Source: a virus (Duplodnaviria; Caudoviricetes). From it: a stretch of 35,316 nucleotides of DNA. Shown piece after piece: positions 5,513-25,926 of the stretch (the first letter of the stretch is position 1; each line of letters starts with the position of its first letter). Under the pieces are notes generated by a model, which saw nothing but the letters and a program-made list of their open reading frames with translations, was not told the origin of the DNA and ran no database searches. A program made the translations under genes and the position numbers. The DNA is taken from positions 1 to 35,316 of IMG/VR virus record IMGVR_UViG_3300010234_000033; one strand, given 5' to 3'.

Positions 5513-5522
5513 AACAACACCT

Positions 5523-6896: not shown

Positions 6897-7190
6897 ATGA
6901 CTAAACAAGCTAAAAAGCATTTGGCTTTTAATGATAAAAAGGCATTTTGCGGGCGCTATTTAAGCGGTTTAATTTACGTTTTAGAGTTAAAAGAGACTAC
7001 TTGTGCGGATTGCTTAAAGTATAAGGACATTTTACCATTTGAGGCGACTAGAGAGATTAGAATGCAGAAAAAACGTAATTGCTTAAGATGTGACAAGGCT
7101 TTTATCCCACGAAACAAATATAACTTTTTATGTAGCTGTGTTGGCAAGGTCGATCTGTTTGACGTTGACGAGTACGGGATATTTGCTTAA
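6897..7190 (+). CDS. Cys-rich zinc-finger protein lying antisense to its neighbours
   Basis: H...CG, CADC, CLRC, CSC motifs; AAGGA RBS. Confidence 0.7.
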   Translation: MTKQAKKHLAFNDKKAFCGRYLSGLIYVLELKETTCADCLKYKDILPFEATREIRMQKKRNCLRCDKAFIPRNKYNFLCSCVGKVDLFDVDEYGIFA

Positions 7191-7501
7191 GGGAAAACGT
7201 ATTTATAAGGAACCAGAATGTATTCAGGGGCGAAGTATTTCCACTCATCCGATAGGTTAAATTCGACCTCTGTACAGTCTCTTTTTTTACGCTTTTTTAT
7301 GCACTTTCGATGAAAAATTATGTTTTCTTTTTCAAATCTAAGTCTGTAAAAACGCTCATTTTTTGCTCGGATTGGTGACTTTCGAGATAAACGTTTCGAG
7401 GAGCAAGAGTTTACGCTCGCGCCAACTAATAAGGTCATCGAAGTCACTGTCAGCACGCGAAACCTCTTCTTTATACTTATCGACAAATTTAAAAAATTCA
7501 T
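7187..7501 (-). CDS. putative lipoprotein, o-spanin-like position
   Basis: KKRFR, then a hydrophobic stretch, then a VNSC lipobox-like site; overlaps the upstream gene in another frame at the end of the lysis cassette. Confidence 0.45.
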   Translation of the reverse strand: MNFLNLSISIKKRFRVLTVTSMTLLVGASVNSCSSKRLSRKSPIRAKNERFYRLRFEKENIIFHRKCIKKRKKRDCTEVEFNLSDEWKYFAPEYILVPYKYVFP

Positions 7502-7601
7502 TCAATGCCCTTTGTTCTTTTGTTGGAAATTGGTCAATAACCTTATTAAAGGCTAAAGCGCCCTGCTCGGCTATTTTAATTATTGCATTTACATCAACCA
7601 T
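7356..7601 (-). CDS. lysis-cassette helical protein (i-spanin position; transmembrane segment unconvincing)
   Basis: GGGTGG RBS before MVDVNAII; follows the holin-like gene. Confidence 0.45.
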   Translation of the reverse strand: MVDVNAIIKIAEQGALAFNKVIDQFPTKEQRALNEFFKFVDKYKEEVSRADSDFDDLISWRERKLLLLETFISKVTNPSKK

Positions 7602-7773
7602 TTTTACCACCCTTAAAGCTTAAAACACTATCCACAACACCTTGAGCGCTTAAATAAGCTATTGCAAGGCCTTGAACTAGTTCCAAAGCCTTTGAGTTAA
7701 TACCTATTAAGTCGCCTAGGAAAATTAAAAAGGCACCCACCAGGAGCGCCCTCAGCTTTTTACTTTTTAGCAC
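7594..7773 (-). CDS. putative two-TM holin (start revised to the GTG at 7773)
   Basis: MLKSKKLRALLVGAFLIFLG...LVQGLAIAYLSAQGVVD has a class II holin-like layout. Confidence 0.55.
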   Translation of the reverse strand: MLKSKKLRALLVGAFLIFLGDLIGINSKALELVQGLAIAYLSAQGVVDSVLSFKGGKNG

Positions 7774-8140
7774 TTGCAGCTTTTTTAGTTTTCTTAACAG
7801 GCTTAACCACTTCCGGTGCTTCGCTTGATAAAATACCACTAGCTCTTTTACTAAAGCTCTTGTTAACAAAAGCCTCTGCAACGTCAGCCGCTAATAGTCC
7901 GCTTGATCTAAGGGAGGCCGCTAACTCGTCTTTAAAGGCATCGTCTACTTGATCGAAAGTCGACACCGCTTTAGATAATGCGTTTAAAGATGTCATAATA
8001 ATCATAGGCACGTCCGCCCCTGGTTGCCACCCGTCTGCTAATGATTGCCTGATACCGTGTACGATATCCTTAACTGCAATTCTCACGTTTTTAACCGGTT
8101 CTGCTTCCAAAACCTTTGTTTCAACTAGATTAACTTTCAT
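7760..8140 (-). CDS. hypothetical protein with a Lys-rich tail, in the lysis cassette
   Basis: ATGA overlap with the endolysin gene; AGGAG RBS. Confidence 0.7.
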   Translation of the reverse strand: MKVNLVETKVLEAEPVKNVRIAVKDIVHGIRQSLADGWQPGADVPMIIMTSLNALSKAVSTFDQVDDAFKDELAASLRSSGLLAADVAEAFVNKSFSKRASGILSSEAPEVVKPVKKTKKAASAKK

Positions 8141-8520
8141 AAAAATCTCCTTACTTGTAAGTGAAAGTGTGCGCCGCTTCCAGTATCATGGTGAATACAT
8201 ACTCGCGGCTTTATTTTAATATTTGGCATAGTCCCGTAAATGCTCCCATATAATTCATTAAGCTTATATTTAATTCTCTCAATATGGAAATCGGTCCACT
8301 TGTCGCTTTTAGTTGAAATATCAATTGCTCTACCGTCGGGATGGGTTTGAGATTTGCGCCCGTTGGCACCGTCTGTTATTGAGGTTATCACGATAGGTAA
8401 GTTGTTTTCATGGGCATAGGAGCAAAAGGATAGAAAAACTATAAGCAAACAAAGATCGACCGCCATTAAATCGCTTGGATTAACCTCTAGTTTATATTCT
8501 AAGTTTGCGAGTGAACGCAT
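8137..8520 (-). CDS. endolysin, peptidase M15-like zinc peptidase
   Basis: IVITS, S.TH..GRAID and HFHLQ zinc-ligand motifs. Confidence 0.75.
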   Translation of the reverse strand: MRSLANLEYKLEVNPSDLMAVDLCLLIVFLSFCSYAHENNLPIVITSITDGANGRKSQTHPDGRAIDISTKSDKWTDFHIERIKYKLNELYGSIYGTMPNIKIKPRVCIHHDTGSGAHFHLQVRRFL

Positions 8521-8750
8521 TAGTTACCCTTAAGCTCCAATTGAACTAGTCGTTTTTCTAAACTTTTTAGTTTATCTCTGTCGTTTTCCTGTTGCGTTAT
8601 AACTACCGCAACGTTTGTATTTAAATCCGCTATATTTGTCGCCATTGTCTGTATTTCTGTTTTCATACCGCTAACGAAATAGAGCAAAAATGCGCCGAGA
8701 ACCGATAACGTCGCTTTGAAAAAATAGTCAACTGTTTCATGCATTCTCAC
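8520..8750 (-). CDS. single-TM plus coiled-coil protein (holin/XhlA-like)
   Basis: ATLSVLGAFLLYFV transmembrane segment then heptad repeats; directly upstream of the endolysin. Confidence 0.55.
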   Translation of the reverse strand: MRMHETVDYFFKATLSVLGAFLLYFVSGMKTEIQTMATNIADLNTNVAVVITQQENDRDKLKSLEKRLVQLELKGN

Positions 8751-11910: not shown

Positions 11911-12642
11911 CTATCCAAAAAGACTACCGGCTAAACCTTTTCCAGCCTGGCCAGCAAAAGCTCCGCCAGCCGTTCCAAGTATAGAACCCAATAGATCGGG
12001 CTTTTCCTTTCTTACAAATTTTCGTTTCATCCCTGTGGCACCTAGATTTTGAGTCAATAGCTGATTAAGTCCGCTTAACCTATTTAACCTTTGAGTTTCA
12101 AAAGAATCTCTTGCCTGTTTTACTGCTTGGTTTTGAAGGGCTGGAGACATTGCTCTTGCTCTACTTGCTTGATCTCTTAAGTCAGAACCAGCGCCTAATA
12201 TAGTGCTTAAACCTGTAGACGTTCCACCTAGTCCCCTTTGAGCGACTAATGACTTCGCCTGCCTTTCGCGGTCCTCGGCACCGGTAACTAAGCCTTTTAC
12301 TTGCCTTTCGGTGCCCATTTTAGCAATTTGACGTTCTCCTGCTTCGTTAAACTTTTGTCCGCCAAATCTATCTATGTCACCACCTAGTAGATCGTAACTT
12401 TTACGCTGTATTTCCCGACCTCTTAAAGCATTTGCATAAGCATCGGGGTCTTGAGGTAGCTCTATTATTTTAGCACCACCACCGCCGGTTAAGCCTTTGA
12501 ATGCGCTTCCTAATGTTTTATCGACTCGACCGGATAACTTGCCACCTAATAGCGCCCTATCTTGCAATGACCACATAGGTGCCAATGCCAGAGATGGTGA
12601 CTTAGTAACAGTTTTTACAATTTTACTTAAAAAACCCATCAA
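11911..12642 (-). CDS. putative ejection (pilot) protein, P22 gp7-like position
   Basis: AQRGLGGTS motif and Gly-rich amphipathic C-terminus LLGSILGTAGGAFAG. Confidence 0.6.
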   Translation of the reverse strand: MMGFLSKIVKTVTKSPSLALAPMWSLQDRALLGGKLSGRVDKTLGSAFKGLTGGGGAKIIELPQDPDAYANALRGREIQRKSYDLLGGDIDRFGGQKFNEAGERQIAKMGTERQVKGLVTGAEDRERQAKSLVAQRGLGGTSTGLSTILGAGSDLRDQASRARAMSPALQNQAVKQARDSFETQRLNRLSGLNQLLTQNLGATGMKRKFVRKEKPDLLGSILGTAGGAFAGQAGKGLAGSLFG

Positions 12643-12974
12643 CGGCCTCCCTTAAGGTAAGTGCATACGTTTTTATCAAAATCATTACTTAATGAGTCGC
12701 AGGCAAAAGACTTTATAAACGCACTGGCCTGCTTGTATTTAACCTGCTTGTTTTTAGCCTTGTCTATTTTAGACTTCGCAGCCGATGCATTACTCACTAA
12801 ACAATTATACTCATTTTGAGTTAAGTTTTTTAAAAATAAAGCTGTGTTTGTCACGTCATAACCACACTCAAGGAAAATAGCGGGCAAGTATTCCTTTTTA
12901 ACCTTTGAGTAAATCGGGGTCATGTCGTATGCATATAGATTAAAACTGAATAAAACTAAAATTAATAATTTCAT
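12639..12974 (-). CDS. secreted 4-Cys protein, possible tail-fibre partner or chaperone
   Basis: Signal peptide MKLLILVLFSFNLYA; lies immediately after the fibre gene. Confidence 0.6.
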   Translation of the reverse strand: MKLLILVLFSFNLYAYDMTPIYSKVKKEYLPAIFLECGYDVTNTALFLKNLTQNEYNCLVSNASAAKSKIDKAKNKQVKYKQASAFIKSFACDSLSNDFDKNVCTYLKGGR

Positions 12975-12975
12975 T

Positions 12976-14010
12976 TTACCTTCTTTTTATAATTGTTACT
13001 TGAGTGTAAACTTCTGAGTCACCAAACCCGCCCGCTAGACCAAAACCGTCTACATAGGTCGTATTACACTCCTGTTGTATTTGGAAAACCTTACTTGCAG
13101 TTATTGTAAAAACACCTTCAATTATCGAGTCAGTTTGTGAACAGTTCGTGACTGTGTTGGGACAAAAAGCGTTAGAACCTAAAATGGTAGTTGTTGCATC
13201 ACTAGTGTTTTGAAGTCGAGCATGATGTTGTGCCACAAAATAACCAGGGACACGTGCCTTTAAATAATACTCGCCGGCCTCAAGTGTAAATTGATTACTT
13301 GCAAGGGTCGCAAAAGCAGCTCCCGAAGCAGCGTTTAAATCTCTAGTTCTCCAAGCCCCACTATTACATTGCCCACCGCTGGTGCTATTAGCTTTTTGGT
13401 CTGAAATAAAAACAATCTCATCGCCTTTAGCGCCTACTATTTCCCAGTTTGAGTTATCACTTACAACCTCAATGGCCGTATCTTGCCCGTAAATATTGTA
13501 AGTTGTGAAACCGTCTATTGTTTCACTTCCGTCTGGGTCTAAAATAACCGGTCTACTGTCGTCAGTGCCGATTGATTTGATTTTATATCTTTTACCTTGA
13601 ACACCTACCGCTGTTGGGAGTGTTAAAGTAAAACTAGCACTAGTCGGGTCTGCTAAAACAATGTCGTCGCTGGTGGTCAGTGTATAATCTCCGGTTTTTG
13701 AAACAACCGCGCCACTCATGGCACCACTTGCAACCTTAGCAAAAGTCACTGAATTGTCAGCTAATTGAGCTGTGTCAACTGCACCGTTTTCCAATCCCGC
13801 GCCCTCAATAGTTCCATCGGTTATACACCCGCCGTCTAAATTTCCATTAAGCCTATTATAAACCGTGTTTAAATCACCATTGTATTTAGTAGAAGTTAAA
13901 ACCGAGTTAGCACTGACATTAGTCCTAGAATCGGCCGTACAAGTTCCGGCGTTAGCTTCAAAAGCTATTAGAAAAATTAAACTAGTTAGGATTGCCATTT
14001 TTTTGAACAT
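12976..14010 (-). CDS. tail fibre/spike-like protein with an N-terminal Sec signal peptide
   Basis: MFKKMAILTSLIFLIAFEANA leader; AVDTAQLADNSVTFAKVA repeats; SKTGDYTL...FTLTLPTA...IDG domain; beta-sandwich C-terminus; GAGGGG RBS. Confidence 0.7.
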   Translation of the reverse strand: MFKKMAILTSLIFLIAFEANAGTCTADSRTNVSANSVLTSTKYNGDLNTVYNRLNGNLDGGCITDGTIEGAGLENGAVDTAQLADNSVTFAKVASGAMSGAVVSKTGDYTLTTSDDIVLADPTSASFTLTLPTAVGVQGKRYKIKSIGTDDSRPVILDPDGSETIDGFTTYNIYGQDTAIEVVSDNSNWEIVGAKGDEIVFISDQKANSTSGGQCNSGAWRTRDLNAASGAAFATLASNQFTLEAGEYYLKARVPGYFVAQHHARLQNTSDATTTILGSNAFCPNTVTNCSQTDSIIEGVFTITASKVFQIQQECNTTYVDGFGLAGGFGDSEVYTQVTIIKRR

Positions 14011-15886
14011 CTATTTGCCCCTCTATAAGAGAAATACTTTCGTTTTCTGCATTTTTGTAAAACCCGAGTAATAATGATTGACCTGATTTGAAAATTTCAC
14101 CTATGTACCTTACAATGGTTCTACCGTCCGACAAAATATTCTCATCTAATTTTGACACGTCTAAAATAAAACCCGTTGTTGGATTCGAGAACTCAAAATC
14201 ATTTTCATATACCGTTTGCAGGTCATAATCTAAAAATGTTTTTACCGTTATTTCGGTTTGAGATGAGAGCGCCCTAATTATTAAAGGGCCAAAATTATAA
14301 CTTGCATCTAAATCATTGCCATTAGTCCACCATAATAAACAAAAAGCATCAATATTCTCGTTTGCGTTATCAATATCAATATCAGTTAAATCATTTTTGA
14401 TTGAATACTCATAAATATACCCGCCCTGACCTGCTAGATAGACAACCTCTTCGCCGTCTGTGTCTAGCCCTAAAGCGCCGTCAGTAAAGGATAGGCTAAA
14501 TTGATAGGGTCTAAAACCGCCTATCTCAAACTCGTAGTTATAGGCCTTAGAAATTGAAGTGTTAGAACCTTCACTTATAAAAGTCATATAATGATCTAAA
14601 GTCGGATAATAGACGCTAAAAAAATTGTCGTAGTTAGATTTATTTAGCTCGTAGACATAACCGTTTCGAGTAAAAATGTCGTCAATGTCGCCCATTGCTA
14701 AAGTAATTGGTTTATTTCCCTTTTCAACTAAGCGACCGTTAACAATTACACGCCAACCCTTAGAACTTAAAAAATAAATATTTCCATTAACAACCTGAAT
14801 GCTGTCATGCGAAACACAACCGACATCGGCACTAATTATCGACTTCGATGCAACGCCGCCGACCTCACTGTAAAGCTCTATTCTATTTCGCTTAAAGCCC
14901 ACTAGATACGGATCTAAATTTGAATCATTGAAAAACCCAACTGCAATGCCTGTAATTGGACCCTCACCACCAATAACCACAACTGTTCTGGTTAAGGTAC
15001 CGTCAAAAGCGTCAGGTATATACTCTTCACTTAAAAATATCTCAGAGGCGCTGGCCGTATTCCCAGCCGTTGCCAACTTGTTACCGTAAACGGCCAAATA
15101 TTTAGCGCCGCCTGCTATATGTTTAGCGTTTTTAGTAGGTGGAGCAAGTGTGCTAGACGGGTCGTCGTCAATAGTATCTGTTGTTGTTGCAAGTGCTATT
15201 TCTGCCCAAAAAACCCAGTCACCACCGCTGCCAACGTCTTTTAGGTATATTCTTTTTTTGTCTATATTTGAATTGCTGGCACTTGTAGGAATCGCGCTAA
15301 CGTCTATCTGCTCGCCTGTCCCTGTTATTGTAACTGTTGAGCTGGTTGTACCTATATTGGTTTCAAACCCATTTGTTGAATCGTAAAAAGTAATTGCCAC
15401 TTGGTAGGTGGACGCCGAAAGGGTGTTACCCGAACCACTTACACCAACCGTTACTCCGCCTGGGGCATCCTCACCTAGTTGCGTGAACGTGCTCCCATTG
15501 TATTGAAAAAGCCCGTCGCTTCCAATTGCAATTATATGTCGTATGTTATTAGCATTCCCAAAGGCAACGCCTCGGTGCTTATTTGCAGCGGTTAAGCCTG
15601 TTTTTAAGCTAGTGTGTGCTCCTGTGGCATTTGCCTTATATAAAACTGTTTGATCTTTTGCGAGTAGGTAAGAATTGCTTGAATTATCTCTAAAATAACT
15701 TATAGAGTTTGGAGCTTCACTAAAAGCGGTTGCGTTAAATCTAACTAAACCGGGTCTAGTCTCTAATATATCCCCATTACTATAGACGTTTTTAGCGTCT
15801 AGCATTCGGTCTTGAGCGTCTGCCTTGTAACTTACAGGCATGTTAAAGCGTTTAATGTTTTTTTGTGCTCTAAGCCTTAAAGGCAT
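13982..15886 (-). CDS. tail nozzle/DNA stabilisation protein (P22 gp10 / T7 gp12-like position)
   Basis: 634 aa, beta-rich; LETRPG near the N-terminus; VGCVSHDSI...IYFLSSKG propeller-like blades; follows the adaptor. Confidence 0.7.
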   Translation of the reverse strand: MPLRLRAQKNIKRFNMPVSYKADAQDRMLDAKNVYSNGDILETRPGLVRFNATAFSEAPNSISYFRDNSSNSYLLAKDQTVLYKANATGAHTSLKTGLTAANKHRGVAFGNANNIRHIIAIGSDGLFQYNGSTFTQLGEDAPGGVTVGVSGSGNTLSASTYQVAITFYDSTNGFETNIGTTSSTVTITGTGEQIDVSAIPTSASNSNIDKKRIYLKDVGSGGDWVFWAEIALATTTDTIDDDPSSTLAPPTKNAKHIAGGAKYLAVYGNKLATAGNTASASEIFLSEEYIPDAFDGTLTRTVVVIGGEGPITGIAVGFFNDSNLDPYLVGFKRNRIELYSEVGGVASKSIISADVGCVSHDSIQVVNGNIYFLSSKGWRVIVNGRLVEKGNKPITLAMGDIDDIFTRNGYVYELNKSNYDNFFSVYYPTLDHYMTFISEGSNTSISKAYNYEFEIGGFRPYQFSLSFTDGALGLDTDGEEVVYLAGQGGYIYEYSIKNDLTDIDIDNANENIDAFCLLWWTNGNDLDASYNFGPLIIRALSSQTEITVKTFLDYDLQTVYENDFEFSNPTTGFILDVSKLDENILSDGRTIVRYIGEIFKSGQSLLLGFYKNAENESISLIEGQIDVQKNGNPN

Positions 15887-18004
15887 TTAGACCTCCCAAC
15901 CATACGTGTCGCCATTAACATCTCTAACGGCAGTAGGTTTTCCGCGCTGCCTACGTGCCTTTGCTTGTAACTGCTTTTTAAATAACTCGTAATTGTTTAA
16001 TTTAGTTTGAACGCCGTTTCGGTCTTTATATTCATAACCTTTCCACACAACACCCTCAAAAAGTGCTTTTTCCCATGACTTCGGAGCGTCTATATCTAAA
16101 TCTGATACATAAACCGTTTTATGCGGTCGTCGATAGATCCAATAGCTTAAAGTTCTTTGAGCATCGGTAGCACCGGAGCTTAATTGTGGATAGAGTAAAA
16201 TGCTAGTCTCACCTATAAAGTCATAGGAATAAGGCGAGGTGCTTTCACTTGAGTTTGGATCTGCACGTCTAACCTTATTTGAACTCTCTCTCACTAGAAA
16301 CTTGTTACCACTTTCAAGATAAGGGTGCTCGCTAGAAAGTTGGTCTATTTCTGATACGTCAGGAGGAGTTAAAACAGAGGTTGGGTCACTTGAAATTGTG
16401 TAAGTTGTAGTTGTGTTATCTTCAAGATTTGCCACAAAAAACGGTTCTCCAAAATCAGTATCAGTGCTTGATTTTTTGGCCATGTAAAGACTTCTGTAAA
16501 TAACCGAAGGTTCAACGGTAGTATCACCACCAAAAACCGGAATACTTGTAACTGCCAATGATTGAACATCAAAATCAGCATTAACCTCACCAGAGGCGAC
16601 ACTTGCTTGTGACTCAACGTGTGAACTACACTCACCATCAAATATCTTATAGGTCACGTAAACTTTATAGTCTGAAAAAGTTACCCCGTCCCCGACATCA
16701 CTTAGTGAAACACTTGTTAAAGTCGGAGTCGCTTGATCGTCTGTAGTGTTTAAAAATGCCACCACCAGCACCGTAGAACTAACGGTTAACAAGGCCATTG
16801 CATTAGTGTTAATTTCAGCCGCCGTGTTGGCCTGTGCGTATGTCCCGTCAGAGTTAGACCATGCGCTACCGTCCCAATATTTATTTTGAGCGTCCACGTT
16901 TAAAATGTATTTAATTTCGGTCCCTGTCGGTTTTGATGCACTCTCTGAGAACGCCGATAACTCACCAACTGTGAATCCAGTATCTAAAGTTATAGACGGA
17001 CTAGAAGTCGCATAGACCGGAGGAGGTGCCGTTGTATAACTAGCCCCTGTATTTTGGACAGTGTTAAAAATTTGAATATTGCTAACCCACGCCTCGATTG
17101 TCGCTGTTATAGCGGTAGCATAGTCAGCACCAACTCTTAAATATCCCGTATTGTCACTTCTAGTGCCTGGTGAGCTAGTAGCGGTAGCACCGACCTTGGA
17201 ACCGTCAATATAACACCTATATTCTCCATTAGTAGTATCGAAGCTCATTTCTATTTTGTACGTTTGAAGCGCCGTAGGATTAAAGGCAAAATTTGCCGTA
17301 GTTATCAAACCGCCTGAACTAGTATAAAGCTTTATAGATAACCCAGCCGCCCCGTGTGATAACCTTAATAGATTGTTAGTCCCATTAACCGCGCTAGACG
17401 TACTAAAAATATATTTATCAGAACCAGGGTCCCCACTATATTGGGGGGTGTAATCAAATCTAAATGTCCCCGTATTTGCAAAATCTAAAACATCTCCATT
17501 GTATTGAGCATATTGCTGAGTCCCACCAGCTAGTTTTAGATAATTATCCTCAACTGTCGGGGATGGTGTCCCGTTTAATGAAGCTGTATTTGTTCCAATA
17601 CTAATATCGGCATTCCCATTACTTGTTAAAAATGTGTTTCTAAATGTTTCGGCAGTGACTAGTTCTTTTCCTAGATACGCCGTTGTTGAATTAAATAAAA
17701 TCTTAGCACTGTCATAGGTATAATCACTCGCTGACGTGGTGTTGTAATCCAAGCTTGTACTTGTCGAAGTTAGCGCGACAGAGGGCGCGGTGGGTATTTC
17801 AGGACATAAATTAATTATCTCCTGTTGTGTAGGTAAAAGCTTTTTAAGCTTAAATTTATAATGCCCTAAAGGTAGTTCGCTAGACATGTCGGCTAAAATC
17901 TCATCGACCCATACCGCTATTCTCGCTTTACTAGAATCACTCGTGTCCCACAACCTAGTCGCCAATCGGTCAATAAAAGATTTCATAGTCCAACGCATTG
18001 TCAT
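15887..18004 (-). CDS. head-tail adaptor with large inserted beta domains including a LamG/ConA-like domain
   Basis: Helical N-terminus and LLYP...YWIYRRP...APKSWEKALFEGVVW C-terminus are adaptor-like; the central region with YRCYIDG and LRVG is LamG-like. Confidence 0.65.
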   Translation of the reverse strand: MTMRWTMKSFIDRLATRLWDTSDSSKARIAVWVDEILADMSSELPLGHYKFKLKKLLPTQQEIINLCPEIPTAPSVALTSTSTSLDYNTTSASDYTYDSAKILFNSTTAYLGKELVTAETFRNTFLTSNGNADISIGTNTASLNGTPSPTVEDNYLKLAGGTQQYAQYNGDVLDFANTGTFRFDYTPQYSGDPGSDKYIFSTSSAVNGTNNLLRLSHGAAGLSIKLYTSSGGLITTANFAFNPTALQTYKIEMSFDTTNGEYRCYIDGSKVGATATSSPGTRSDNTGYLRVGADYATAITATIEAWVSNIQIFNTVQNTGASYTTAPPPVYATSSPSITLDTGFTVGELSAFSESASKPTGTEIKYILNVDAQNKYWDGSAWSNSDGTYAQANTAAEINTNAMALLTVSSTVLVVAFLNTTDDQATPTLTSVSLSDVGDGVTFSDYKVYVTYKIFDGECSSHVESQASVASGEVNADFDVQSLAVTSIPVFGGDTTVEPSVIYRSLYMAKKSSTDTDFGEPFFVANLEDNTTTTYTISSDPTSVLTPPDVSEIDQLSSEHPYLESGNKFLVRESSNKVRRADPNSSESTSPYSYDFIGETSILLYPQLSSGATDAQRTLSYWIYRRPHKTVYVSDLDIDAPKSWEKALFEGVVWKGYEYKDRNGVQTKLNNYELFKKQLQAKARRQRGKPTAVRDVNGDTYGWEV

Positions 18005-19158
18005 GACAAATACTCCTTACTTTCATTTGAAACACCCGATAGGCATAGGCAATAGAAAATACCACTAATTAAAAATAGACTTGAGATGTGCAACGTAAAA
18101 TTGCCAAAACAATTTATAAAAACCCCGAACAATGCACTACTGGCAATAACGTTTTTACTTCTGAGCAATGCCCGACTAAATAAAGCATAAAAACCAATAA
18201 ACCCAAACACTCCGAAGGCCATATAAGACGCTAAATACTCCGAGTGCTCTTGATACCACTTAACCCCGTTAATAACGTACATGCGTGGGAAATGGTCATA
18301 AAACCACCCCGTCCCATTGCCAACTAAAAAGGTCTTAAAGTCTGTTATTGATAAAATTAAGGACCATGATAAAAATCTCTGACTATCAAAACCCGAAACA
18401 CCATTAGGACCAATAATTAAAAAGGTACCTATCAAAACGACTAGGACTAGAATTAAAGGCAGCGTTTTGTAATGGACTAAGAGGTTTTGTTTTTTGAATT
18501 GAGAGTTTTGGAGAACACACACAAAAAAGAAATACAAAACGCTGCCGATAAAAGATATATTTGCTATTGCCGAGTCGTAAAAATAAAGGCCCATTATAAC
18601 TAACGGCAATAATTTTAAATATTTTTTAATAAAGAACACAGGTCCACAAATCGCGAGCATGGCACCTGATAACATACTATTGTTTAACGGCCCTATGGCC
18701 TTGCCTGGAGCTGCTACTTTATATTGCTTAATGCCTGCAATATATTCAGCATAAAAGGAGTAAGGGCTAAAACCAAGCTTGTTAACCACCGCCCACGTTA
18801 TATTAACCAAGGCAGTAATAACTATAAATTTATAGATAACGTCTAATTGATACAAACTAAAATTCTCATAGAAGTTTTTCAGAAATAGGACACCGGCAGT
18901 TATATAAACAATATGGTAAAAATTGCCTATTGACGCATAATTATCCACATTAAACCAACTCACCACTAAAAGGATTGATAAACCTATTTTTTCTGGTAAG
19001 GGAAATTTTCTAACTGACTTGCTAAAAAAATAAAGTGAAGCCATAACGGCAAGCCAAAAAAAGGAGTCCTTGCCCTCTCTTAAACCGCCTCTAGTAACTC
19101 TGAATATTAAGGGAGTAGTCACAAGCACTACCCCCCAAAAAAAATTGAAATTAATCAT
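18001..19158 (-). CDS. O-antigen ligase / O-oligosaccharyltransferase-like (Wzy_C) polytopic membrane protein
   Basis: About 10 hydrophobic segments; GPLNNSMLSG; R...W, G.G.G.F and HSEYL...FG..G match the WaaL/PglL periplasmic-loop signature. Confidence 0.75.
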   Translation of the reverse strand: MINFNFFWGVVLVTTPLIFRVTRGGLREGKDSFFWLAVMASLYFFSKSVRKFPLPEKIGLSILLVVSWFNVDNYASIGNFYHIVYITAGVLFLKNFYENFSLYQLDVIYKFIVITALVNITWAVVNKLGFSPYSFYAEYIAGIKQYKVAAPGKAIGPLNNSMLSGAMLAICGPVFFIKKYLKLLPLVIMGLYFYDSAIANISFIGSVLYFFFVCVLQNSQFKKQNLLVHYKTLPLILVLVVLIGTFLIIGPNGVSGFDSQRFLSWSLILSITDFKTFLVGNGTGWFYDHFPRMYVINGVKWYQEHSEYLASYMAFGVFGFIGFYALFSRALLRSKNVIASSALFGVFINCFGNFTLHISSLFLISGIFYCLCLSGVSNESKEYLS

Positions 19159-19676
19159 CTTAGCCTTACGAAAGCCTCGACTGCCGCACTAGCTGACGCA
19201 TCGTCGTAAAATACACCGCCTGGGACATCACTGGCAGCTACGGACGCCAAGTCCTCTGCCTGTGCATAACCTGCAACGTTTTCACTGATAAAAAATTGAT
19301 GACCTGCCGACGCTGTTCGGTTGGTTGAATCAAATAGTAGCTTGTCGGTATAACCGTAGGTTCTACATCTACAAATTGCTTCGGCCGCGCATGACGCATC
19401 TCTGTTAGAATCTAGCATACAAACCGGCGAGTCTCCTGCCGTTGTACTAGTTGAGAACGTATAACCGTCGTCAGATGCAGTATCAAATACAACTAAAGAA
19501 CCATCGGAAGCGGCTGACGCTCCGTTGTTCTTAACATAAACAAACCAGTTTTCTAAAGATCCCTCTTGAAGTGCTCCGGTTGCATCAATTGAAACCGATC
19601 TACCTGCCGGTCCAATGTCCGCAAAAGCATGTAGGCTTATTGTTAACAAAAATAATAGGGTGAGTAATTTTTTCAT
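19155..19676 (-). CDS. capsid decoration/cement-like protein with a Sec signal peptide
   Basis: Directly after the major capsid gene; small, Ala/Gly/Ser-rich beta protein; leader MKKLLTLLFLLTISLHAFA; GGAGA RBS. Confidence 0.6.
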   Translation of the reverse strand: MKKLLTLLFLLTISLHAFADIGPAGRSVSIDATGALQEGSLENWFVYVKNNGASAASDGSLVVFDTASDDGYTFSTSTTAGDSPVCMLDSNRDASCAAEAICRCRTYGYTDKLLFDSTNRTASAGHQFFISENVAGYAQAEDLASVAASDVPGGVFYDDASASAAVEAFVRLR

Positions 19677-19691
19677 TTTTCAAATCTCCAT

Positions 19692-19713
19692 AAAAGGAGG
19701 GTGTTACCCCTCC
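19692..19713 (-). terminator. intrinsic terminator/attenuator after the major capsid gene
   Basis: Minus strand reads GGAGGG-gtaaca-CCCTCC-TTTT. Confidence 0.7.
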
Positions 19714-19727
19714 CGATTAATAATTAA

Positions 19728-20690
19728 TTAAACTGTAATGTCGTTAACTCTTGAGTGAAATTTTCTCTCGCTAGCAACGGTGTTACCATAAAGGAAAATT
19801 CTCTCTAACAACGCATCGGCAGTCTCAAGGTCTTTAATTGATTGACGTCTCATATTGTTGTCTTTTTGAACGTGAAGCTTAAAGTGCTCCTCATCAACAT
19901 GAAATAGAGTATTCCCTGGCATTTGGTTTTCTACCATGTAAGGAATACCGTTATAAACAATCATTGTCCCTTTGTGACCAAAACCGTCTAGCTTAGAATC
20001 ACTAGTCGTTCTTTGGTACGCTGTAAACAACCCTTTAAATTTAGAGAAAACGTTTTTATCCATCAAACCAAGTGATGGTGCTCCCCTACCCTCTTCAACG
20101 GCAGAATCATAATTAGAATCTACAATTGCCTGAGTAAGTGTTCTGTTAACCCCACTATTGTCGTCAACGGTTGAAACCCATGTCGCAAGGTCTGCCGGAG
20201 CAATCCCACCGTACGTTCCACTCGAAGCGATAACAGCTTGTAGGCCAATAAATTGTTTAGTTGAAGCCGCACCGGTCGCAGCCGTTCCGTCAGATAGGGC
20301 ACCTTTAATCATTCTTTGTTTAAAAGCAAGCTCACCTTGTCTAACTTTTTTGTCAACTAGTTTAAGTACACCTAGTCTCCCTGCGTTTTTAGCAATGTCT
20401 GCTTTATAAATTACGACTGACTCGTAAATATATTTCCAGTCATGCTCACTAGCAGAAATACCGTCATACTCTTGAAGAGATAGAGCGTCTCTAGGGCTAT
20501 AAAACTCACCTGTTGTTTCGGTGTCGTCAGCGGCCATTAGTGGACAAATAATCTTGTTACCACCGTCTTCTAGCTCTTGTTTTTCTCTAAGTTTGTTTAA
20601 AAATGCATTTGAAGTGAAGATTCCTTCAGTCATTTTATCTTTAATTAGATCATGTGTAACTGCCGTAATTTGGCCATATGTTAATGCCAT
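19728..20690 (-). CDS. major capsid protein (HK97 fold)
   Basis: 320 aa; follows portal and scaffold; GGNKIICPL, FIGLQAVI and YNGIPYMVE segments; followed by a terminator. Confidence 0.85.
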   Translation of the reverse strand: MALTYGQITAVTHDLIKDKMTEGIFTSNAFLNKLREKQELEDGGNKIICPLMAADDTETTGEFYSPRDALSLQEYDGISASEHDWKYIYESVVIYKADIAKNAGRLGVLKLVDKKVRQGELAFKQRMIKGALSDGTAATGAASTKQFIGLQAVIASSGTYGGIAPADLATWVSTVDDNSGVNRTLTQAIVDSNYDSAVEEGRGAPSLGLMDKNVFSKFKGLFTAYQRTTSDSKLDGFGHKGTMIVYNGIPYMVENQMPGNTLFHVDEEHFKLHVQKDNNMRRQSIKDLETADALLERIFLYGNTVASERKFHSRVNDITV

Positions 20691-20708
20691 TTTTCTTACC
20701 TCTGGGTT

Positions 20709-21770
20709 TTAAAACCCTTTTTCTTTGACCTTACTCATTAAGTAGTTCATATAATTGCCTGAATTGTCTTTTTGCTCATTTGTGTTGTTTAGTGGTGTAT
20801 CGCCCGACCCAACACGTTGAGCACTTTCAAGTTTTGTCTTATTAAGTTTGTTGCTCGACTCTAAGGCTTTTTGAATTTGCTCACCATGGACCGCTAGCAT
20901 TGCCTGCTTAACGCTCATTGATTGGTTTTCATCGCTAGTCCAAATCTTGTTAACAGATTCCCAGTCAGGAGATATTCCAAGCTTTTTTAATTTAAGACCG
21001 TAATCATTACTCACTTCCTTAAAACCGTCCTCCCACTCTTTTTCAGCACGACTGACGTTAGCTTCTACCTCTTGATTTTCTTTGTTTTTCAAAAGCTGTT
21101 CAACTGATTCCAAGCGCCCATTTAGTTGTTTAACTACAGGGTCGTTTGGGTTGCCTTGATGTCTTGGAGCTACCTGCTTAACGTATGACATTATGTCTTG
21201 AAATAATTCAGGGTCATTATTCTGAATACCCTCTAAAGCTTCGGCCATAATTTGGTTATTAGTTAGTTCCTCATTAAATTCATTTTGTCGATTCTCGAAC
21301 TCCTGTTCCTTTTCGACGAAACTGTTTTCACGTTCTGTAAATGCAGTCTCTTTGTCGCTAAATTCCTTTTCGCGCTCTTGTGATTTGTACGTATAGTCAG
21401 CTCCCATTGATAACATTGACTTTAAATCGTCCATGTTTTCGATGTTAACCGGAAGTCCTTTCCTTAAAACTCCAAGGTCATTAATTGACTCAAGAAATTT
21501 AGACTCGTCAAAATCACCATTTTCTACTTCAAGGTTGTTAAGTTGGTCTTCGACGCTTAACTCCTCTTGATTTTCCTCGGTAGTTGTTTCATTTGACTCC
21601 GTTTCCGGCTGGTCACCAACTGCCTCGCTTGTCGTGTCCACGTCGTCCGCTCCTAGTGAATCTAGGTTGGCGTCGTCCATGTACTTCTCAACTGCACTAG
21701 GTGCTGCGCCAAGTTCTCCGCGCTCATTCCCTAGTACTAGTTTAAGAAAATTCATAATACTTAACTTCAT
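20709..21770 (-). CDS. capsid scaffolding protein
   Basis: Acidic N-terminal region, GADYTYKSQE motif and coiled coils; between portal and capsid genes. Confidence 0.8.
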   Translation of the reverse strand: MKLSIMNFLKLVLGNERGELGAAPSAVEKYMDDANLDSLGADDVDTTSEAVGDQPETESNETTTEENQEELSVEDQLNNLEVENGDFDESKFLESINDLGVLRKGLPVNIENMDDLKSMLSMGADYTYKSQEREKEFSDKETAFTERENSFVEKEQEFENRQNEFNEELTNNQIMAEALEGIQNNDPELFQDIMSYVKQVAPRHQGNPNDPVVKQLNGRLESVEQLLKNKENQEVEANVSRAEKEWEDGFKEVSNDYGLKLKKLGISPDWESVNKIWTSDENQSMSVKQAMLAVHGEQIQKALESSNKLNKTKLESAQRVGSGDTPLNNTNEQKDNSGNYMNYLMSKVKEKGF

Positions 21771-21779
21771 TATATCCCT

Positions 21780-23852
21780 TTAGTTAGCTGGCTGGTCTTG
21801 ATTGACTCCAGTTAATTTTTGGATCTCTTCTTCTCTTAAAATTTCTTCAAGCATTTTACGCTCCTCTGGGCTTAGTAACTCAGGGTTAATTTGTGCTTTT
21901 AATTTTAAGTTTTCTATTTGCATTTGTTGCATTTGTGACTGTACTTGTTCCAATGCGGCGTTTTGCTCATTTCTAGCGCCTACCATCTCAAGTATTTTCT
22001 CTTTTCGTGGCATCTCTGCTAACTGTAAATACTCTTCATAGGTTATAAAGCCAGCGCCTAATTGAGCGTACAAGAGAGAGTTATAAGCCTGCTTGTCTAC
22101 GCCTGCCATTGACCCCGATGCTATACCGACATCAAACTCAAGGTCTGACATTTCAAGAGGGTTAAATATAATTTCTTCCTTAGATTGCTCGTCGACGCCT
22201 AGATATTTTTCATCGGTCCAAAATTGTATAATATTACAAGCTGTTAAATGACCTAAACGGCCTAAAGAGTAGTAAGTGTTTTGTCGATCTATTAACCTTA
22301 TTCTACCTATTGCTTGGTTTTGTGTACGTTCAACTGTTGTTGCGGCTGCATTAGGGTGAGGTGTCTTGCCCTCGGTGACTTCATTTACACCCGAAAGCTC
22401 ACGCATTTTGAGCATCCTTTCAGGAGCGAACCTTACAACCTGTTCGCTTATAACACCTGGAGGGATATTTTGGATTGAAGTGCCTTGAGGCTTGAAATAC
22501 AGGGCACCGTCCTCGTTGGTGATATCGTCCTCAGTTAAACCAGTTTCAATATCGACTTGCTTTTCGGGATTAGCAACACGTTGCAACCCTTTATAAGCCT
22601 TGTAAGTCATAACCGTCTGCATTTGCTGACTGTCAAAAATATTTCTTATTACTCCGTCGCCAAAAATAGTTCCATTCCGGTAACAGTAAAAAGGTACTAG
22701 ATTAATTTCGCCATGGTCATACTTGTTTACACCATCGTAAACGGTAGTTTGACCCAAGCTTTCAATGACCCGATATCCACCGGGGTATTTAAGCATTTCT
22801 CCTTTAGGGTTTTCTTTTTGCAGGGTTGCGTGAGCTTCAATATGATTTTCTAAAATCTTAATTTTTAAAAGTAAGTCACCAACTGCGTCAGGGTTTTCCT
22901 GTGCTAACTCTTGAGCTATTTGTTCGGCAGCTTCAAAGCCTTGTTCTGGAGTTAGGTTTAATTGTGAATAAAGTTCGGTTAAGTCAGCGTAGTGACTTTC
23001 GCCGTGTGCTTTATGGTTTTCATATAATTTAACGTCAGGGCTATTGCCTTCCATTAACTCTTTTTTTTCACTTTCCAACTCTTGAGCTGTTATCTCTTCG
23101 GGTATTGGCTTAAGTGAAAAATCTTTAACATAGGTATATTTAAGCTTTAAAAGGTTTTTATTTGAATAAGGCTTAGGCACAGACCGTCTATGTCGTTGTT
23201 GCGTATCATGCTTTTCCAACCCTCGATAACTGTCATTGGCCTGCGTGACTTCTTCGCCTTTCATTTTAGAGATTTGCTTGGAATATTTAGGGTATGCCCT
23301 TTCAAGCCATGATCTTGAACGAAACACTGTAAATTGAGCTGAGTCAGATTGTTCAATAAATAGAGAGTTTCCAGAGATTAAAACTTCGTTCTCGTCCCAT
23401 CTCAATATTTCGTTTTTAAGCTCACCTTGCCCATTGTTAGCGAACGGGTCGTAACAAGGATGAATAAAACCAGGAGCGTCAGTTATGGCATTTCTAACAA
23501 CCATTGGGTACATGAGGTCGAACTTCTGCTTTTTAAATACGTGCTCAATGGCTTTACTTAAAACAGTAGCTTTTTGCGCGTTATCCTCACCATTCATTTT
23601 AGCAACCGGCATAGGCATTGAATCGGTTAAAATAGGCACCATTGTTTCAATAATGCTGAAAATATTATTCTCATAGGGCTTATATTCGGATTGGTTTTCC
23701 CAGATAACCCCATGATATGAACGACGTTCAACACGCCAACAACTTTCAAATTGTTCTCTATAGTTTTTAAGGTCCGCACAAACATCGTTTACGATATCTA
23801 TAGGGTTTTCCTTATTCTCGCTGGTCATTTTTTCTTTTAATTTTTCAAGCAT
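21780..23852 (-). CDS. portal protein (P22-like)
   Basis: 690 aa; NNIFSIIET, LVPFY...FGDGVIRNIFDSQ, ELSGVNEVTEG; Gln-rich C-terminal coil. Confidence 0.85.
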   Translation of the reverse strand: MLEKLKEKMTSENKENPIDIVNDVCADLKNYREQFESCWRVERRSYHGVIWENQSEYKPYENNIFSIIETMVPILTDSMPMPVAKMNGEDNAQKATVLSKAIEHVFKKQKFDLMYPMVVRNAITDAPGFIHPCYDPFANNGQGELKNEILRWDENEVLISGNSLFIEQSDSAQFTVFRSRSWLERAYPKYSKQISKMKGEEVTQANDSYRGLEKHDTQQRHRRSVPKPYSNKNLLKLKYTYVKDFSLKPIPEEITAQELESEKKELMEGNSPDVKLYENHKAHGESHYADLTELYSQLNLTPEQGFEAAEQIAQELAQENPDAVGDLLLKIKILENHIEAHATLQKENPKGEMLKYPGGYRVIESLGQTTVYDGVNKYDHGEINLVPFYCYRNGTIFGDGVIRNIFDSQQMQTVMTYKAYKGLQRVANPEKQVDIETGLTEDDITNEDGALYFKPQGTSIQNIPPGVISEQVVRFAPERMLKMRELSGVNEVTEGKTPHPNAAATTVERTQNQAIGRIRLIDRQNTYYSLGRLGHLTACNIIQFWTDEKYLGVDEQSKEEIIFNPLEMSDLEFDVGIASGSMAGVDKQAYNSLLYAQLGAGFITYEEYLQLAEMPRKEKILEMVGARNEQNAALEQVQSQMQQMQIENLKLKAQINPELLSPEERKMLEEILREEEIQKLTGVNQDQPAN

Positions 23853-23959
23853 GGATATAGATTAAGGAATAAACAGAATAAAATATCATAAAAACGACTT
23901 TCCGAAATTATATAAACTCTTAAGGTTTTCGTTTTTAAAATACAGAAAAAAGGAGTGTT

Positions 23960-24358
23960 ATGCCTAGTTATAGATTTCATTGCAGAAATGAGAAATGTGG
24001 AGCTGACTTTTTAAGACATTTTAAAATTGAAGAGTTTGAAAAAAATCAATATGGTTCGGGTTATGGTTGTTTTAGATGTGGTTTTCCACGTATGGCCGTA
24101 ATCAAGTCTAATAAAGTCGCTAAGGATGGTTTCCAACCAGGCTTTCAGCGAAACATAATGAAACATTGTGCTACCTATGGAGAATATAAAGCCCACCTAA
24201 AAAGAATGGGCTTAGTTGAAATAGGGCACGAGGACTTGGAAGAATCAGAAGATAACAAAACAGAATATTGGACCGACGACATCTTGAAAAAGGTTTATGC
24301 TAACGGGATTAAGATATCAGGCCGTGAGGCGGACGCTCTTAAAAAGGGGCTGGCTTAA
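23960..24358 (+). CDS. FmdB-like zinc-ribbon protein
   Basis: MPSYRFHCRNEKC...CFRC; AGGAG RBS. Confidence 0.75.
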   Translation: MPSYRFHCRNEKCGADFLRHFKIEEFEKNQYGSGYGCFRCGFPRMAVIKSNKVAKDGFQPGFQRNIMKHCATYGEYKAHLKRMGLVEIGHEDLEESEDNKTEYWTDDILKKVYANGIKISGREADALKKGLA

Positions 24359-24636
24359 TCAAAAGGGTCTACGATGTTACCCATTAAAGCCGTTTCCATG
24401 TCTTTAGATGGGCTATAGCTCCAGCCCTTAACTATTTTTTTAGGTTTGGTTTTCTTTTTAACCTTAAACTCTATTTGCTCGGCGCTCGGAGCGTTTTTAT
24501 TTAAAGATTTTGCAAATTCTGTGATGTATTTATTTTGCTCTAGTTGCCTAACTTCTATTCTTTTCATGAAATTAAACACTGAATGCGCAAATATAAAAAA
24601 GAGTGCTAAGTAACCGCTGTAAAATATAATTTCCAT
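24355..24636 (-). CDS. N-terminally anchored small membrane protein
   Basis: IIFYSGYLALFFIFAHSVF transmembrane segment. Confidence 0.65.
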   Translation of the reverse strand: MEIIFYSGYLALFFIFAHSVFNFMKRIEVRQLEQNKYITEFAKSLNKNAPSAEQIEFKVKKKTKPKKIVKGWSYSPSKDMETALMGNIVDPFD

Positions 24637-24645
24637 TAATCGCCT

Positions 24646-25926
24646 TTAATCTATTTTATACTCTCTAACGCTAAACCTTAAGTCAATTTGGGCATTGTTA
24701 GTATTTGTGTCAACAACAAAATATAAGACATCGGTAGGCGTCAACCTAAAGCCTACAGGTTCGTTTAAAGTTACAATCGAATCGGTGCTTGTATCAATTA
24801 ACACCCTAAACACTTCATAGGTCGTTGCTACGTTTCGGTTATAAGCATACCCTTTAACTGTTAATCTAGGGCTACCACCGCCCGAAAGTTTGTTTACATT
24901 AATCCAAAGAAATTTTGCGACCGCGTAACTATTTGAATCAACAAAGAATATTGCCTGCTGAGTCACGCTGTTACCCGTAGGAATAAAAGCCTGTGTAGTA
25001 CCTGCCGTTGTTGCCGTGAAGGTTATATCGTTTCCATTACTCCCAGTGCCCGCATTTGATGCCACAGAAACCCTATTAATGCCTAAGCCTGAGAAACTAG
25101 TTACGTCACTCCCATCACTACCTAGAACGTGAGTCGCTTCACTGCCTAAACCATTCTCGTCGATATAATCAATGAATAATGAAGTGGCACCTGAGGCGGT
25201 CGCCCCGTCATCTGTATTGTCATAGGCAATCGTGAAAGTTTGAGCTTCACCACTTGCCAAAGGTGTAAAATTACCAGTAGTTGCCCAAACAGTCTCTTCA
25301 CCATTTGCGTCTGTTAAGCCCTCTCTATAACCAAATTTTGTAAAATGCGAGACGCCTGATCTTTGACCTATTACAACCTCATCCTCTGGAATAGTAGGTC
25401 TTACAACTAGAGCGTCATTGTCTATTGCTACGGGCTGGTTTGTAGGACTAACGCTTGGAACAAAACCTGAACCATAATAGGTTTTTAATCTAAAATAAGA
25501 CTGAGCGCCGGCATCATTAACAAATCTAACTCTAAAATAGCGTCCCAGTTTAACAGCGGTATGAAATTCAGCAATACCAGAGGCAACTTTAAAGCCGGCA
25601 GGAGGAAAGCTTGAATCCCAATTGGTCCCGTCATTGGAAAAATCAAAATATAAAGTCCCTGAATTGTCAGCCTTAACCATAACGCCAACTTGAGGCATTG
25701 AGTTTATTTCTCCGGTGCCTGTAAACGTAGCACCGCTTGTAAGTGCTGTTGTGCTGGAGTTACCGCTAGACTCGATAGAAGAACCACTCATTAAAGCGCG
25801 TTTTGCATATTGATCGGTTGCGGCGTCGTAAACGTGTGAACCTTTAACAATATCCGCAACCGGTTCGTTAACATGAGTTACTGCATATAAGTTAAAAGAA
25901 ATTAACCATAAAAATATAAATCTCAT
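24646..25926 (-). CDS. 426-aa secreted Ser/Thr/Gly-rich beta protein, possibly virion-associated (start revised)
   Basis: ATG at 25926 follows the upstream stop and a GAGGT; gives signal peptide MRFIFLWLISFNLYA. Confidence 0.65.
   Translation of the reverse strand: MRFIFLWLISFNLYAVTHVNEPVADIVKGSHVYDAATDQYAKRALMSGSSIESSGNSSTTALTSGATFTGTGEINSMPQVGVMVKADNSGTLYFDFSNDGTNWDSSFPPAGFKVASGIAEFHTAVKLGRYFRVRFVNDAGAQSYFRLKTYYGSGFVPSVSPTNQPVAIDNDALVVRPTIPEDEVVIGQRSGVSHFTKFGYREGLTDANGEETVWATTGNFTPLASGEAQTFTIAYDNTDDGATASGATSLFIDYIDENGLGSEATHVLGSDGSDVTSFSGLGINRVSVASNAGTGSNGNDITFTATTAGTTQAFIPTGNSVTQQAIFFVDSNSYAVAKFLWINVNKLSGGGSPRLTVKGYAYNRNVATTYEVFRVLIDTSTDSIVTLNEPVGFRLTPTDVLYFVVDTNTNNAQIDLRFSVREYKID

Follow-up and report, generated by a model that had tools for sequence, protein, structure and literature searches.

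Two outer parts of the virion, the capsid cement protein and the tail fibre, are probably exported, folded with disulfide bonds outside the cytoplasm and added to the particle at lysis in an uncultured podovirus and its relatives. Tailed-phage assembly is taught as a wholly cytoplasmic process. The stretch of viral DNA analyzed here (35,316 nucleotides, referred to as the window) is a complete podovirus genome of 35.3 kb, and an outline of the process that it suggests is as follows: portal, capsid, adaptor and nozzle, having no export leader, would stay behind, while cement and fibre would be exported via Sec leaders, cleaved by signal peptidase I and disulfide-folded in the periplasm, where they may trimerise. 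The exported parts would bind finished heads and tails when the inner membrane fails at lysis, the freed N-terminus of the fibre docking on the nozzle and the cement binding the capsid. Periplasm-matured parts of tailed phages are not described in the literature found, most subscription journals and supplements lying outside the search, and no paper found on these phages describes an assembly route via the periplasm; supplements on virion proteomics could bear on its novelty.

Leaders were scored not by SignalP but by a rule of our own, which requires a basic n-region, an 8-residue hydrophobic core with a mean Kyte-Doolittle value of at least 2.2, small residues at −3/−1 and no membrane span past the cut. 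The rule is passed by five of the 56 window genes scored (the gene at 24355-24636 was left out); applied as a null to 1838 internal positions, it fired at 14 of them. Four of the five, all on the minus strand, are those that a preliminary description of this DNA had singled out: the genes for the cement protein (19155..19676; leader of 19 aa, Sec-type, at 19620-19676), the tail fibre (12976..14010; 21 aa, 13948-14010), a small post-fibre protein (12639..12974; 15 aa, 12930-12974) and a beta-rich protein of 426 aa (24646..25926; 15 aa, 25882-25926). Under the same rule they have the n-region, core, −3/−1 residues and lack of a further span expected of Sec/signal peptidase I substrates. The fifth, at 30810-31169, encodes a BamE-like lipoprotein. 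Other details of that description also held: a purine-rich, RBS-like stretch precedes all four ORFs, the first three mature proteins have 4, 6 and 4 cysteines (the 426-aa protein has none), and portal, capsid, adaptor and nozzle fail the rule, as do the scaffold and three ejection-type genes. The portal is P22/SU10-like (21780..23852, minus strand; Pfam P22_portal, E 2.7e-11), and the major capsid protein (19728..20690, minus strand; NF033394, E 1.5e-51; phrog_9953) is about 25% identical to those of Myxococcus phages Mx8/Mx9.

Could the leaders be artefacts of wrong start calls? Within the first 60 codons, in-frame starts occur only at codons 1 and 5 of the fibre gene and codons 1 and 10 of the cement gene, and therefore the mature N-terminus of neither protein can be reached by initiation. 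The objection keeps some force for the other two genes: ATGs at codon 18 of the post-fibre gene and codon 46 of the 426-aa gene make leaderless forms possible, judging from the window alone. With leaders conserved across 108 cement and 76 fibre homologues, this explanation is largely refuted and its probability is close to negligible.

The identity of the post-capsid protein as a cement is solid. Its structure model (173 aa; pLDDT 94.7) has the beta-tulip plus C-terminal domain fold, and its top match in the PDB is the HFTV1 cement protein (8QSY; Z 13.7, rmsd 2.2 Å, 114 residues aligned), followed by cement/decoration proteins of Sf11 (Z 12.0), FCWL1 and Pam3 (both Z 11.9); the structure prediction and Foldseek comparison proposed earlier have thus revealed a capsid cement/decoration fold. 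Two of 12 orthologues match Pfam Phage_cement_2 (PF09956; best E 1.2e-4), the window protein itself giving no match, and in 17 of 18 loci the gene lies directly behind that of the capsid protein. Fold and post-capsid slot are shared with the beta-tulip cement/decoration proteins of HFTV1, Sf11 (9OCB), Pam3 (8HDT) and TW1 (5WK1), the phi29 gp8.5 base (6QYY), lambda gpD and the family PF09956. Profiles of the cement, the fibre, its anchor and the capsid protein gave no significant match when searched against PDB sequences, and among cultured phages the cement protein is without a match. Known beta-tulip cement families are made in the cytoplasm. Unlike them, the cement of the window clade combines a conserved leader of Sec type with two to three cysteine pairs; the post-capsid gene of Mx9 is leaderless and encodes no cysteine, and the distant homologues P0320, P0323, P0330, P0333 and P0335 are leaderless with 0–2 cysteines, P0330 passing the Phage_cement_2 cut-off.

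The leader occurs in 102 of 108 cement homologues (Ala at −1 in 98) and in 74 of 76 anchor-bearing fibre homologues, far beyond chance; homologues of both proteins thus largely keep their leaders. These counts are not phylogenetically independent. Cysteines follow a similar pattern. Mature cysteine counts are even in 105 of the 108 cement homologues and cysteine counts in 75 of the 76 fibre homologues. For comparison, the count is even and non-zero in 6 of the 18 control capsid proteins and in 8 of the 14 control nozzles. In the cement, disulfides are predicted between mature C67 and C85, both invariant in 106 aligned rows, and between C77 and C83, which are lost together in two rows; a third pair, C3/C25, occurs together in ten rows and unpaired in one. 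Sec-type leaders combined with paired cysteines make periplasmic folding likely, and for cement and fibre Sec export, signal peptidase I cleavage and intramolecular disulfides are all strongly indicated.

The tail fibre (344 aa; PHROG tail fibre, E 2.8e-23) has the features of a podovirus tail fibre: a slot after the nozzle, a conserved N-terminal anchor containing a cysteine pair (mature C3/C41), a variable tip and domains of the receptor-binding type. Conservation is highest in the anchor, whereas tips are exchanged, and two homologues carry the second domain of Mtd, a known receptor-binding protein. Homologue counts refer to the 76 of 90 matches that remain after 14 lacking the anchor were set aside. 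The anchor has no significant match in PHROG. The window tip is 36.5% identical to that of the tail fibre of Sulfitobacter phage pCB2047-A (YP_007675462.1), which is leaderless and has no cysteine, the anchor homology between the two not being significant. A relative, L022, provides a natural experiment: the slot again holds a fibre with this anchor, but the leader and the two anchor cysteines are all missing, so that leader and cysteines are coupled. If these fibres are indeed exported, they would need periplasmic expression to fold, and annotations that dismiss signal-peptide genes as non-structural would miss receptor-binding proteins.

How would an exported fibre reach the particle? The predicted dock is the nozzle/hub (13982..15886, minus strand; phrog_511, phrog_3287; a weak match to PDB 8JOV chain A, E 0.0054). 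Three copies of mature fibre residues 1–62 modelled with the nozzle gave an ipSAE of 0.54, the best of three controls giving 0.00; at least 70% of contacts are shared between runs, and partner pLDDT is at least 84. Of 157 solved complexes, 116 reach the docking mark, as do 2 of 215 mismatches; scores of 0.60 or under belong to 18 of the 157 solved complexes and to both mismatches, so the value of 0.54 is graded weak. Periplasmic trimerisation, docking of the freed N-terminus on the nozzle and binding of cement to the capsid are moderately supported suggestions. The adaptor (15887..18004, minus strand; SU10_adaptor, E 2.7e-5), which is about 350 aa in most relatives, contains in the window a beta-rich, leaderless insertion of about 350 aa that is also present in two relatives, L006 and L007; this insertion, and not the fibre, could be the host binder, which counts against the reading preferred here.

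It can also be supposed that the exported proteins are virion folds repurposed to act on the host envelope, never joining the particle, as receptor blockers, agents of superinfection exclusion, surface adhesins like the MATs of Bdellovibrio or XepA-type lysis helpers, with the Wzy_C-like membrane protein discussed below altering host LPS. Precedents exist: MATs, fibre proteins of the bacterial host itself, are reported to have signal peptides (PMC10769870), O-antigen ligases are found among Wzy_C enzymes, and the post-fibre slot is filled by unrelated small basic proteins. This supposition nevertheless appears improbable, as canonical virion slots are kept by the cement gene (17/18 loci) and by the fibre gene (15 of 15 informative loci), the anchor is conserved most while tips swap and recurs in the leaderless L022 fibre, and the docking model, weak as it is, points the same way. 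Two complete relatives, G005 and G007, moreover contain no other fibre candidate: a composition screen of ORFs of at least 100 aa, with capsid, adaptor, nozzle and ejection-type genes set apart, found no leaderless Ser/Thr/Gly-rich fibre or spike.

The host-envelope supposition draws more strength from the 426-aa protein. This protein (NCBIfam XepA, E 2e-5) has the tandem jelly-roll arrangement of the XepA family, and its best structural match is XepA of the Bacillus subtilis element PBSX (6I56; Foldseek E 2e-9; Z 15.7, rmsd 13.5 Å, 196 residues aligned). Since its score against NCBIfam NF047953 is 23.9 bits, below the equivalog cut-off of 400 bits, it is XepA-like and not a XepA member. XepA has two jelly-roll domains and is reported to be exported, as the 426-aa protein would be, but it has 279 aa versus 411, comes from a monoderm host and is reported as absent from mature particles (PMC6834076). 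A leader is present in only 7 of the 120 best homologues of the 426-aa protein, 113 being leaderless. It is a candidate for either a vertex spike or an exported non-virion protein, and the chance that it joins the particle is about even. For the post-fibre protein (111 aa, 4 cysteines) joining is rather doubtful: its slot holds a small leader-bearing gene in 6 of 14 informative loci, and the window protein resembles none of the other five significantly, these being without mature cysteines. Both proteins are predicted from their sequences to share the export route of cement and fibre. The earlier proposals that outer virion parts are exported and disulfide-folded, and that the leader-bearing proteins are of virion type, are strongly supported for cement and fibre, by leaders, cysteines and L022 on the one hand and by fold, domains and slot on the other, and less so for these two. 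Export is also not obligatory in the clade, because the L022 fibre is leaderless, L014 has no cement gene and the beta proteins of L005 and G002 have no leader.

Alternatively, the leaders might be uncleaved or slowly cleaved and tether the proteins to the inner membrane, so that assembly is staged at that membrane and export stays incomplete. An amphipathic N-terminal extension ending in Gly, carried by 9 of 17 scaffold proteins and by 6 of 17 capsid proteins, would fit such membrane-associated assembly; in the window, the putative scaffold, assigned by slot and acidic composition (20709..21770, minus strand), has one of 18 aa. Nevertheless, the strict small-residue pattern at −3/−1 and the cysteine pairs whose presence tracks that of the leader indicate cleavage and an oxidizing compartment, making retention at the membrane very improbable. 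The extensions were also considered as class III (prepilin) leaders, an idea that was rejected: all 14 aligned proteins have the Gly, but no hydrophobic helix follows. None of the 14 proteins has a Pfam match, no phage-encoded prepilin peptidase was recognized among 30 window proteins scanned against Pfam, PHROG and NCBIfam, and nothing was found in the literature on prepilin-peptidase processing of capsids.

Directly behind the cement gene, its start overlapping the cement stop, lies the gene for a membrane protein of 385 aa that resembles O-antigen ligases and O-oligosaccharyltransferases (18001..19158, minus strand). Its Pfam Wzy_C match is below the cut-off (E 0.0056), but atlas features (0.99 to Wzy_C clusters) and structure (TM 0.75) point to a Wzy_C-type fold, and R261, W265 and H305 are invariant in 15 of 15 sequences, giving the conserved Arg and His of WaaL and O-OTases. 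The Arg is presumably catalytic. PglL-type enzymes carry extra PglL-type domains. A PglL-type general O-OTase was rejected for the window protein, which at 385 aa contains the Wzy_C domain only, against a length of about 525–600 aa (PMC9829042); a catalytic role of the His is described in the same paper. Closer in arrangement are TfpO, TfpM and PglS, which have a Wzy_C domain, a conserved His and a gene downstream of an exported cognate protein (PMC9829042, as far as available); likewise, the window-type gene directly follows that of the exported candidate acceptor, the cement, in 15 of 16 informative loci. A pilin acceptor ending in Ser/Thr was rejected, the cement mostly ending in Leu-Arg/Lys (Leu-Arg in the window). 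The expected co-occurrence of leaders with the Wzy_C gene is seen in this linkage but breaks down in L012, which has leaders without the gene, and thus the gene is not required for leaders. Glycosylation of the exported parts is possible. An elaborate version, in which cement and fibre are exported and oxidized, the Wzy_C protein is a dedicated oligosaccharyltransferase moving O-antigen or capsule units of the host from their lipid carrier to the cement to give host-sugar-coated virions, and heads assemble at the inner membrane via cleavable Gly-ending scaffold/capsid leaders, seems unlikely. If the export reading is true, the phages gain disulfide-stabilized, possibly glycosylated surface parts.

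The timing of the final step is the most tentative part. That exported parts are added at rupture of the inner membrane, as first proposed, is backed by the weak docking model and by a precedent in phage phi18:3 (below), and timing by holin-triggered mixing of compartments may be suggested weakly; if true, lysis becomes an assembly step. The candidate lysis genes (7187-8750) have no match among the Pfam, PHROG and NCBIfam models scanned, which leaves room for particles that enter the periplasm, or exit the cell, without lysis or in stages and are completed on that route instead of by mixing at lysis. Such a route is highly improbable: no secretion-channel genes were recognized, and the cassette appears to resemble holin, peptidase and lipoprotein. 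No prophage of the clade was found in a scan of genome contigs with the capsid protein. Leader style and a GC content of 37% resemble, we assume, those of Bacteriovoracaceae; no Bacteriovoracaceae phage of this kind is among the matches listed, and Aequorivita, a MAG label on the proteins of one relative, was not trusted as host.

Some known systems are partly comparable. Coat proteins of filamentous phages (inoviruses) are made with signal peptides; they stay membrane-embedded and assemble during extrusion, whereas the window encodes soluble parts of a tailed phage. Head spikes of RcGTA were rejected as a precedent for the fibre: the particle structure shows residues 2–10 of Rcc01080, and a passage on a 'signal' in that paper is unrelated (PMC7296036). 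The cultured Cellulophaga phage phi18:3 comes closer, as gp085–gp087, 3 of 12 examined proteins annotated from MS/MS proteomics in its record notes, pass our leader rule, although their detection could reflect co-purification. They are likened to the window proteins by the leader alone: with 0, 1 and 3 cysteines, unlike the window clade, they indicate that disulfides do not explain export in general. Phage phi18:3 is also a cultured source of particles, and L022 and the window together form a natural leader-minus/leader-plus pair of fibres.

The window comprises an entire virus record (35,316 bases) that has direct terminal repeats; the phage belongs to an uncultured podovirus clade, and the window is counted among the 18 distinct loci compared here. 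The minus strand encodes the late arc, in the order terminase, 426-aa beta protein, portal (P22_portal), scaffold, major capsid protein (NF033394; about 25% identical to those of Myxococcus phages Mx8 and Mx9), 173-aa gene, Wzy_C gene, adaptor (SU10_adaptor), nozzle, fibre, 111-aa gene, three probably ejection-type genes and a last block that is probably the lysis cassette. The preliminary description had assigned Sec-type leaders and RBS-like stretches to the post-capsid, fibre, post-fibre (111-aa) and beta proteins, with cysteine counts for the first three, and all of these were borne out on re-reading. Leaders were scored with a simple rule devised for this analysis, which has a null rate of 14/1838; it was passed by five of the 56 scored window genes, these four and a BamE-like lipoprotein with a lipobox (30810-31169, minus strand). 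Translation from the leader-encoding start stands for the fibre and cement genes, in which no in-frame start codon coincides with the mature N-terminus, but is less secure for the post-fibre and beta genes, which have possible downstream ATGs. Because of the BamE-like lipoprotein and the Wzy_C gene we infer a diderm host; a capsid-protein search of genome contigs found no prophage. Small lipoprotein-like genes similar to the BamE-like one occur in three relatives (G002, G003 and G006).

The 173-aa protein is a capsid cement. Its mature chain is predicted with a pLDDT of 94.7, and the model matches the HFTV1 cement/decoration protein (Z 13.7, rmsd 2.2 Å, 114 aligned residues) as well as those of Sf11, FCWL1, Pam3, T1, TW1 and XM1. 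In 17 of the 18 loci the gene lies directly after that for the capsid protein, each of these copies encoding an N-terminal leader. The expectation that homologues keep it was confirmed in 102 of 108 database homologues, with Ala at −1 in 98 and an even mature cysteine count in 105; the six failures comprise three apparently truncated gene calls, one slightly below the hydrophobicity bar, one shifted by one residue and one distant leaderless match. The cysteines behave as pairs: across 106 rows C67/C85 are invariant, C77/C83 are lost jointly, twice, and C3/C25 occur jointly ten times with one unpaired case. Such parity is absent from the controls, counts being even and non-zero in 6/18 capsid proteins and 8/14 nozzles. 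A library-wide profile search yielded 248 proteins; among the best 150, 134 new ones were inspected and most have leaders, partly because the query profile contained the leader. The weakest of these listed matches include leaderless forms with 0–2 cysteines, one scoring above the Phage_cement_2 cut-off, and the family thus connects ordinary cements of the cytoplasm with a branch that has paired cysteines and is predicted to be exported. In two loci (L024:9333-9923 and L025; proteins P0072 and P0077) an extra acidic/helical segment of about 25 residues lies between leader and mature start.

The 344-aa protein following the nozzle is the tail fibre; it matches PHROG tail-fibre families and has its tip in common with that of Sulfitobacter phage pCB2047-A, a fibre free of leader and Cys. 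The conserved portion is an anchor, the first ~50 mature residues, and tips are swapped; two homologues carry the second domain of Mtd. The anchor is present in 76 of 90 homologues, and of these 76, 74 pass the leader rule, in line with the preliminary expectation, and 75 have an even cysteine count. Fourteen of the 15 fibres among the loci have a leader. The exception (L022:14310-15170) has the anchor at its very N-terminus, preceded by an RBS-like stretch, and neither anchor cysteine remains; its genome retains a leader-bearing cement and Wzy_C. This fibre ties the leader to the disulfide; it also means that the anchor occurs without an export signal and that export is not obligatory.

When three mature anchors were modelled with the nozzle, ipSAE was 0.54 against 0.00 for the best of three controls, at least 70% of contacts were shared between runs and the partner had a pLDDT of 84 or more. 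By the tool's rating this is weak: its mark was reached by 116/157 solved complexes and 2/215 mismatches, of which only 18 solved complexes, but both mismatches, had an ipSAE of 0.60 or below. A composition screen of two complete relatives found no leaderless fibre or spike candidate. As counterpoints, a leaderless beta-rich insertion of about 350 aa lies in the adaptor of the window (15887-18004, minus strand) and of two relatives (L006 and L007), and the beta protein of G002 is leaderless. A free-standing leaderless 461-aa gene related to this insertion occurs at L002:1991-3376 (minus strand).

Most likely, and with some confidence, cement and fibre are exported, oxidised in the periplasm and joined to particles at lysis, as the preliminary description had proposed for outer virion parts. 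Both would pass through Sec, lose their leaders, and be oxidised and kept in the periplasm; heads and tail cores would meanwhile form in the cytoplasm, and contact between the two sets would come with failure of the inner membrane at lysis. Leaders, folds and the coupling of leader with cysteines are direct results; export, docking and timing are inferred. The main rival, in which cement and fibre act on the host envelope only, is considered improbable. In T7, lambda and T4 it is well established that fibres and decoration proteins can be added late, onto completed particles. All parts come from known families, and the arrangement is classed as a variant of tailed-phage morphogenesis. The literature searched, with incomplete coverage, contained no description of periplasmic maturation of tailed-phage parts. 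In the cultured Cellulophaga phage phi18:3 (NC_021794, L114:3892-9584), gp085-087 pass the leader rule and, according to the record notes, are annotated from MS/MS proteomics, as 3 of the 12 proteins so annotated in the 29,000-71,400 stretch. As these proteins contain few cysteines, export may have reasons other than oxidation. The RcGTA head fibre was considered as a precedent and rejected.

The predicted co-occurrence with Wzy_C was found: in 15 of 16 informative loci the gene lies directly after that for the cement. The cement and fibre leaders are both retained in L012, which has no Wzy_C, L014 lacks cement and Wzy_C alike, and L011 ends too early to be informative. Arg261, Trp265 and His305 are invariant (15/15), and the Atlas places the product among Wzy_C clusters. 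PMC9829042 describes dedicated O-oligosaccharyltransferases as periplasm-acting enzymes that have a Wzy_C domain, require a conserved His and are encoded directly downstream of their own acceptor gene. This layout would fit glycosylation of the cement; the TfpO/TfpM acceptors, however, end in Ser/Thr, which the cement does not, and modification of LPS instead is equally open. The version of the mechanism that includes glycosylation is doubtful, and if true it would represent a new kind of system.

The 426-aa and post-fibre proteins are weaker cases. The former has a double jelly-roll fold that comes nearest to XepA, reported in PMC6834076 as exported yet missing from mature particles; this counts against the 426-aa protein as a virion part. 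Conservation of its leader failed: of the best 120 of 791 homologues, 113 (about 50–65% identity) are leaderless and seven, the window's own included, have one, and 6/7 leader-bearing vs 24/113 leaderless forms in this set are Cys-free. The leader is optional among clade members, being present in the window, L012 and L038 but not in L005 or G002, and the gene resembles a mobile phage gene that acquired a leader secondarily. A small leader-bearing gene occupies the post-fibre slot in 6/14 informative loci; the window's copy has no relationship to the rest, whose mature forms lack cysteines.

An amphipathic N-terminal extension, with an invariant Gly as its last residue, occurs on 9/17 scaffolds (the window and eight relatives) and 6/17 capsid proteins (sites: window 21717-21770, minus strand; L002:8710, L005:9938, L006:9938, L019:9920, L024:8220 and L106:9555). 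Since capsid proteins without it begin at the residue following that Gly or at a neighbouring one, these sequences suggest a cleaved leader, a candidate assembly leader. Prepilin leaders resemble it but are followed by a hydrophobic helix, which these extensions lack; no peptidase for it was identified. Overlapping small genes at 7187-8750 (minus strand) resemble holin, peptidase and spanin-type lipoprotein, with no match among the families scanned. A PAPS-reductase/DUF3440 gene is paired with a ParB-like gene at 4298-6692 (minus strand), possibly as a DNA-modification module. The 40-kb record G006 (L108-L110) carries two divergent copies of the terminase-to-portal region; its assembly may be chimeric. 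A Cys-rich zinc-ribbon-like gene at 23960-24358 lies on the plus strand, opposite to the late operon, and its position just upstream of portal is conserved across the relatives examined.
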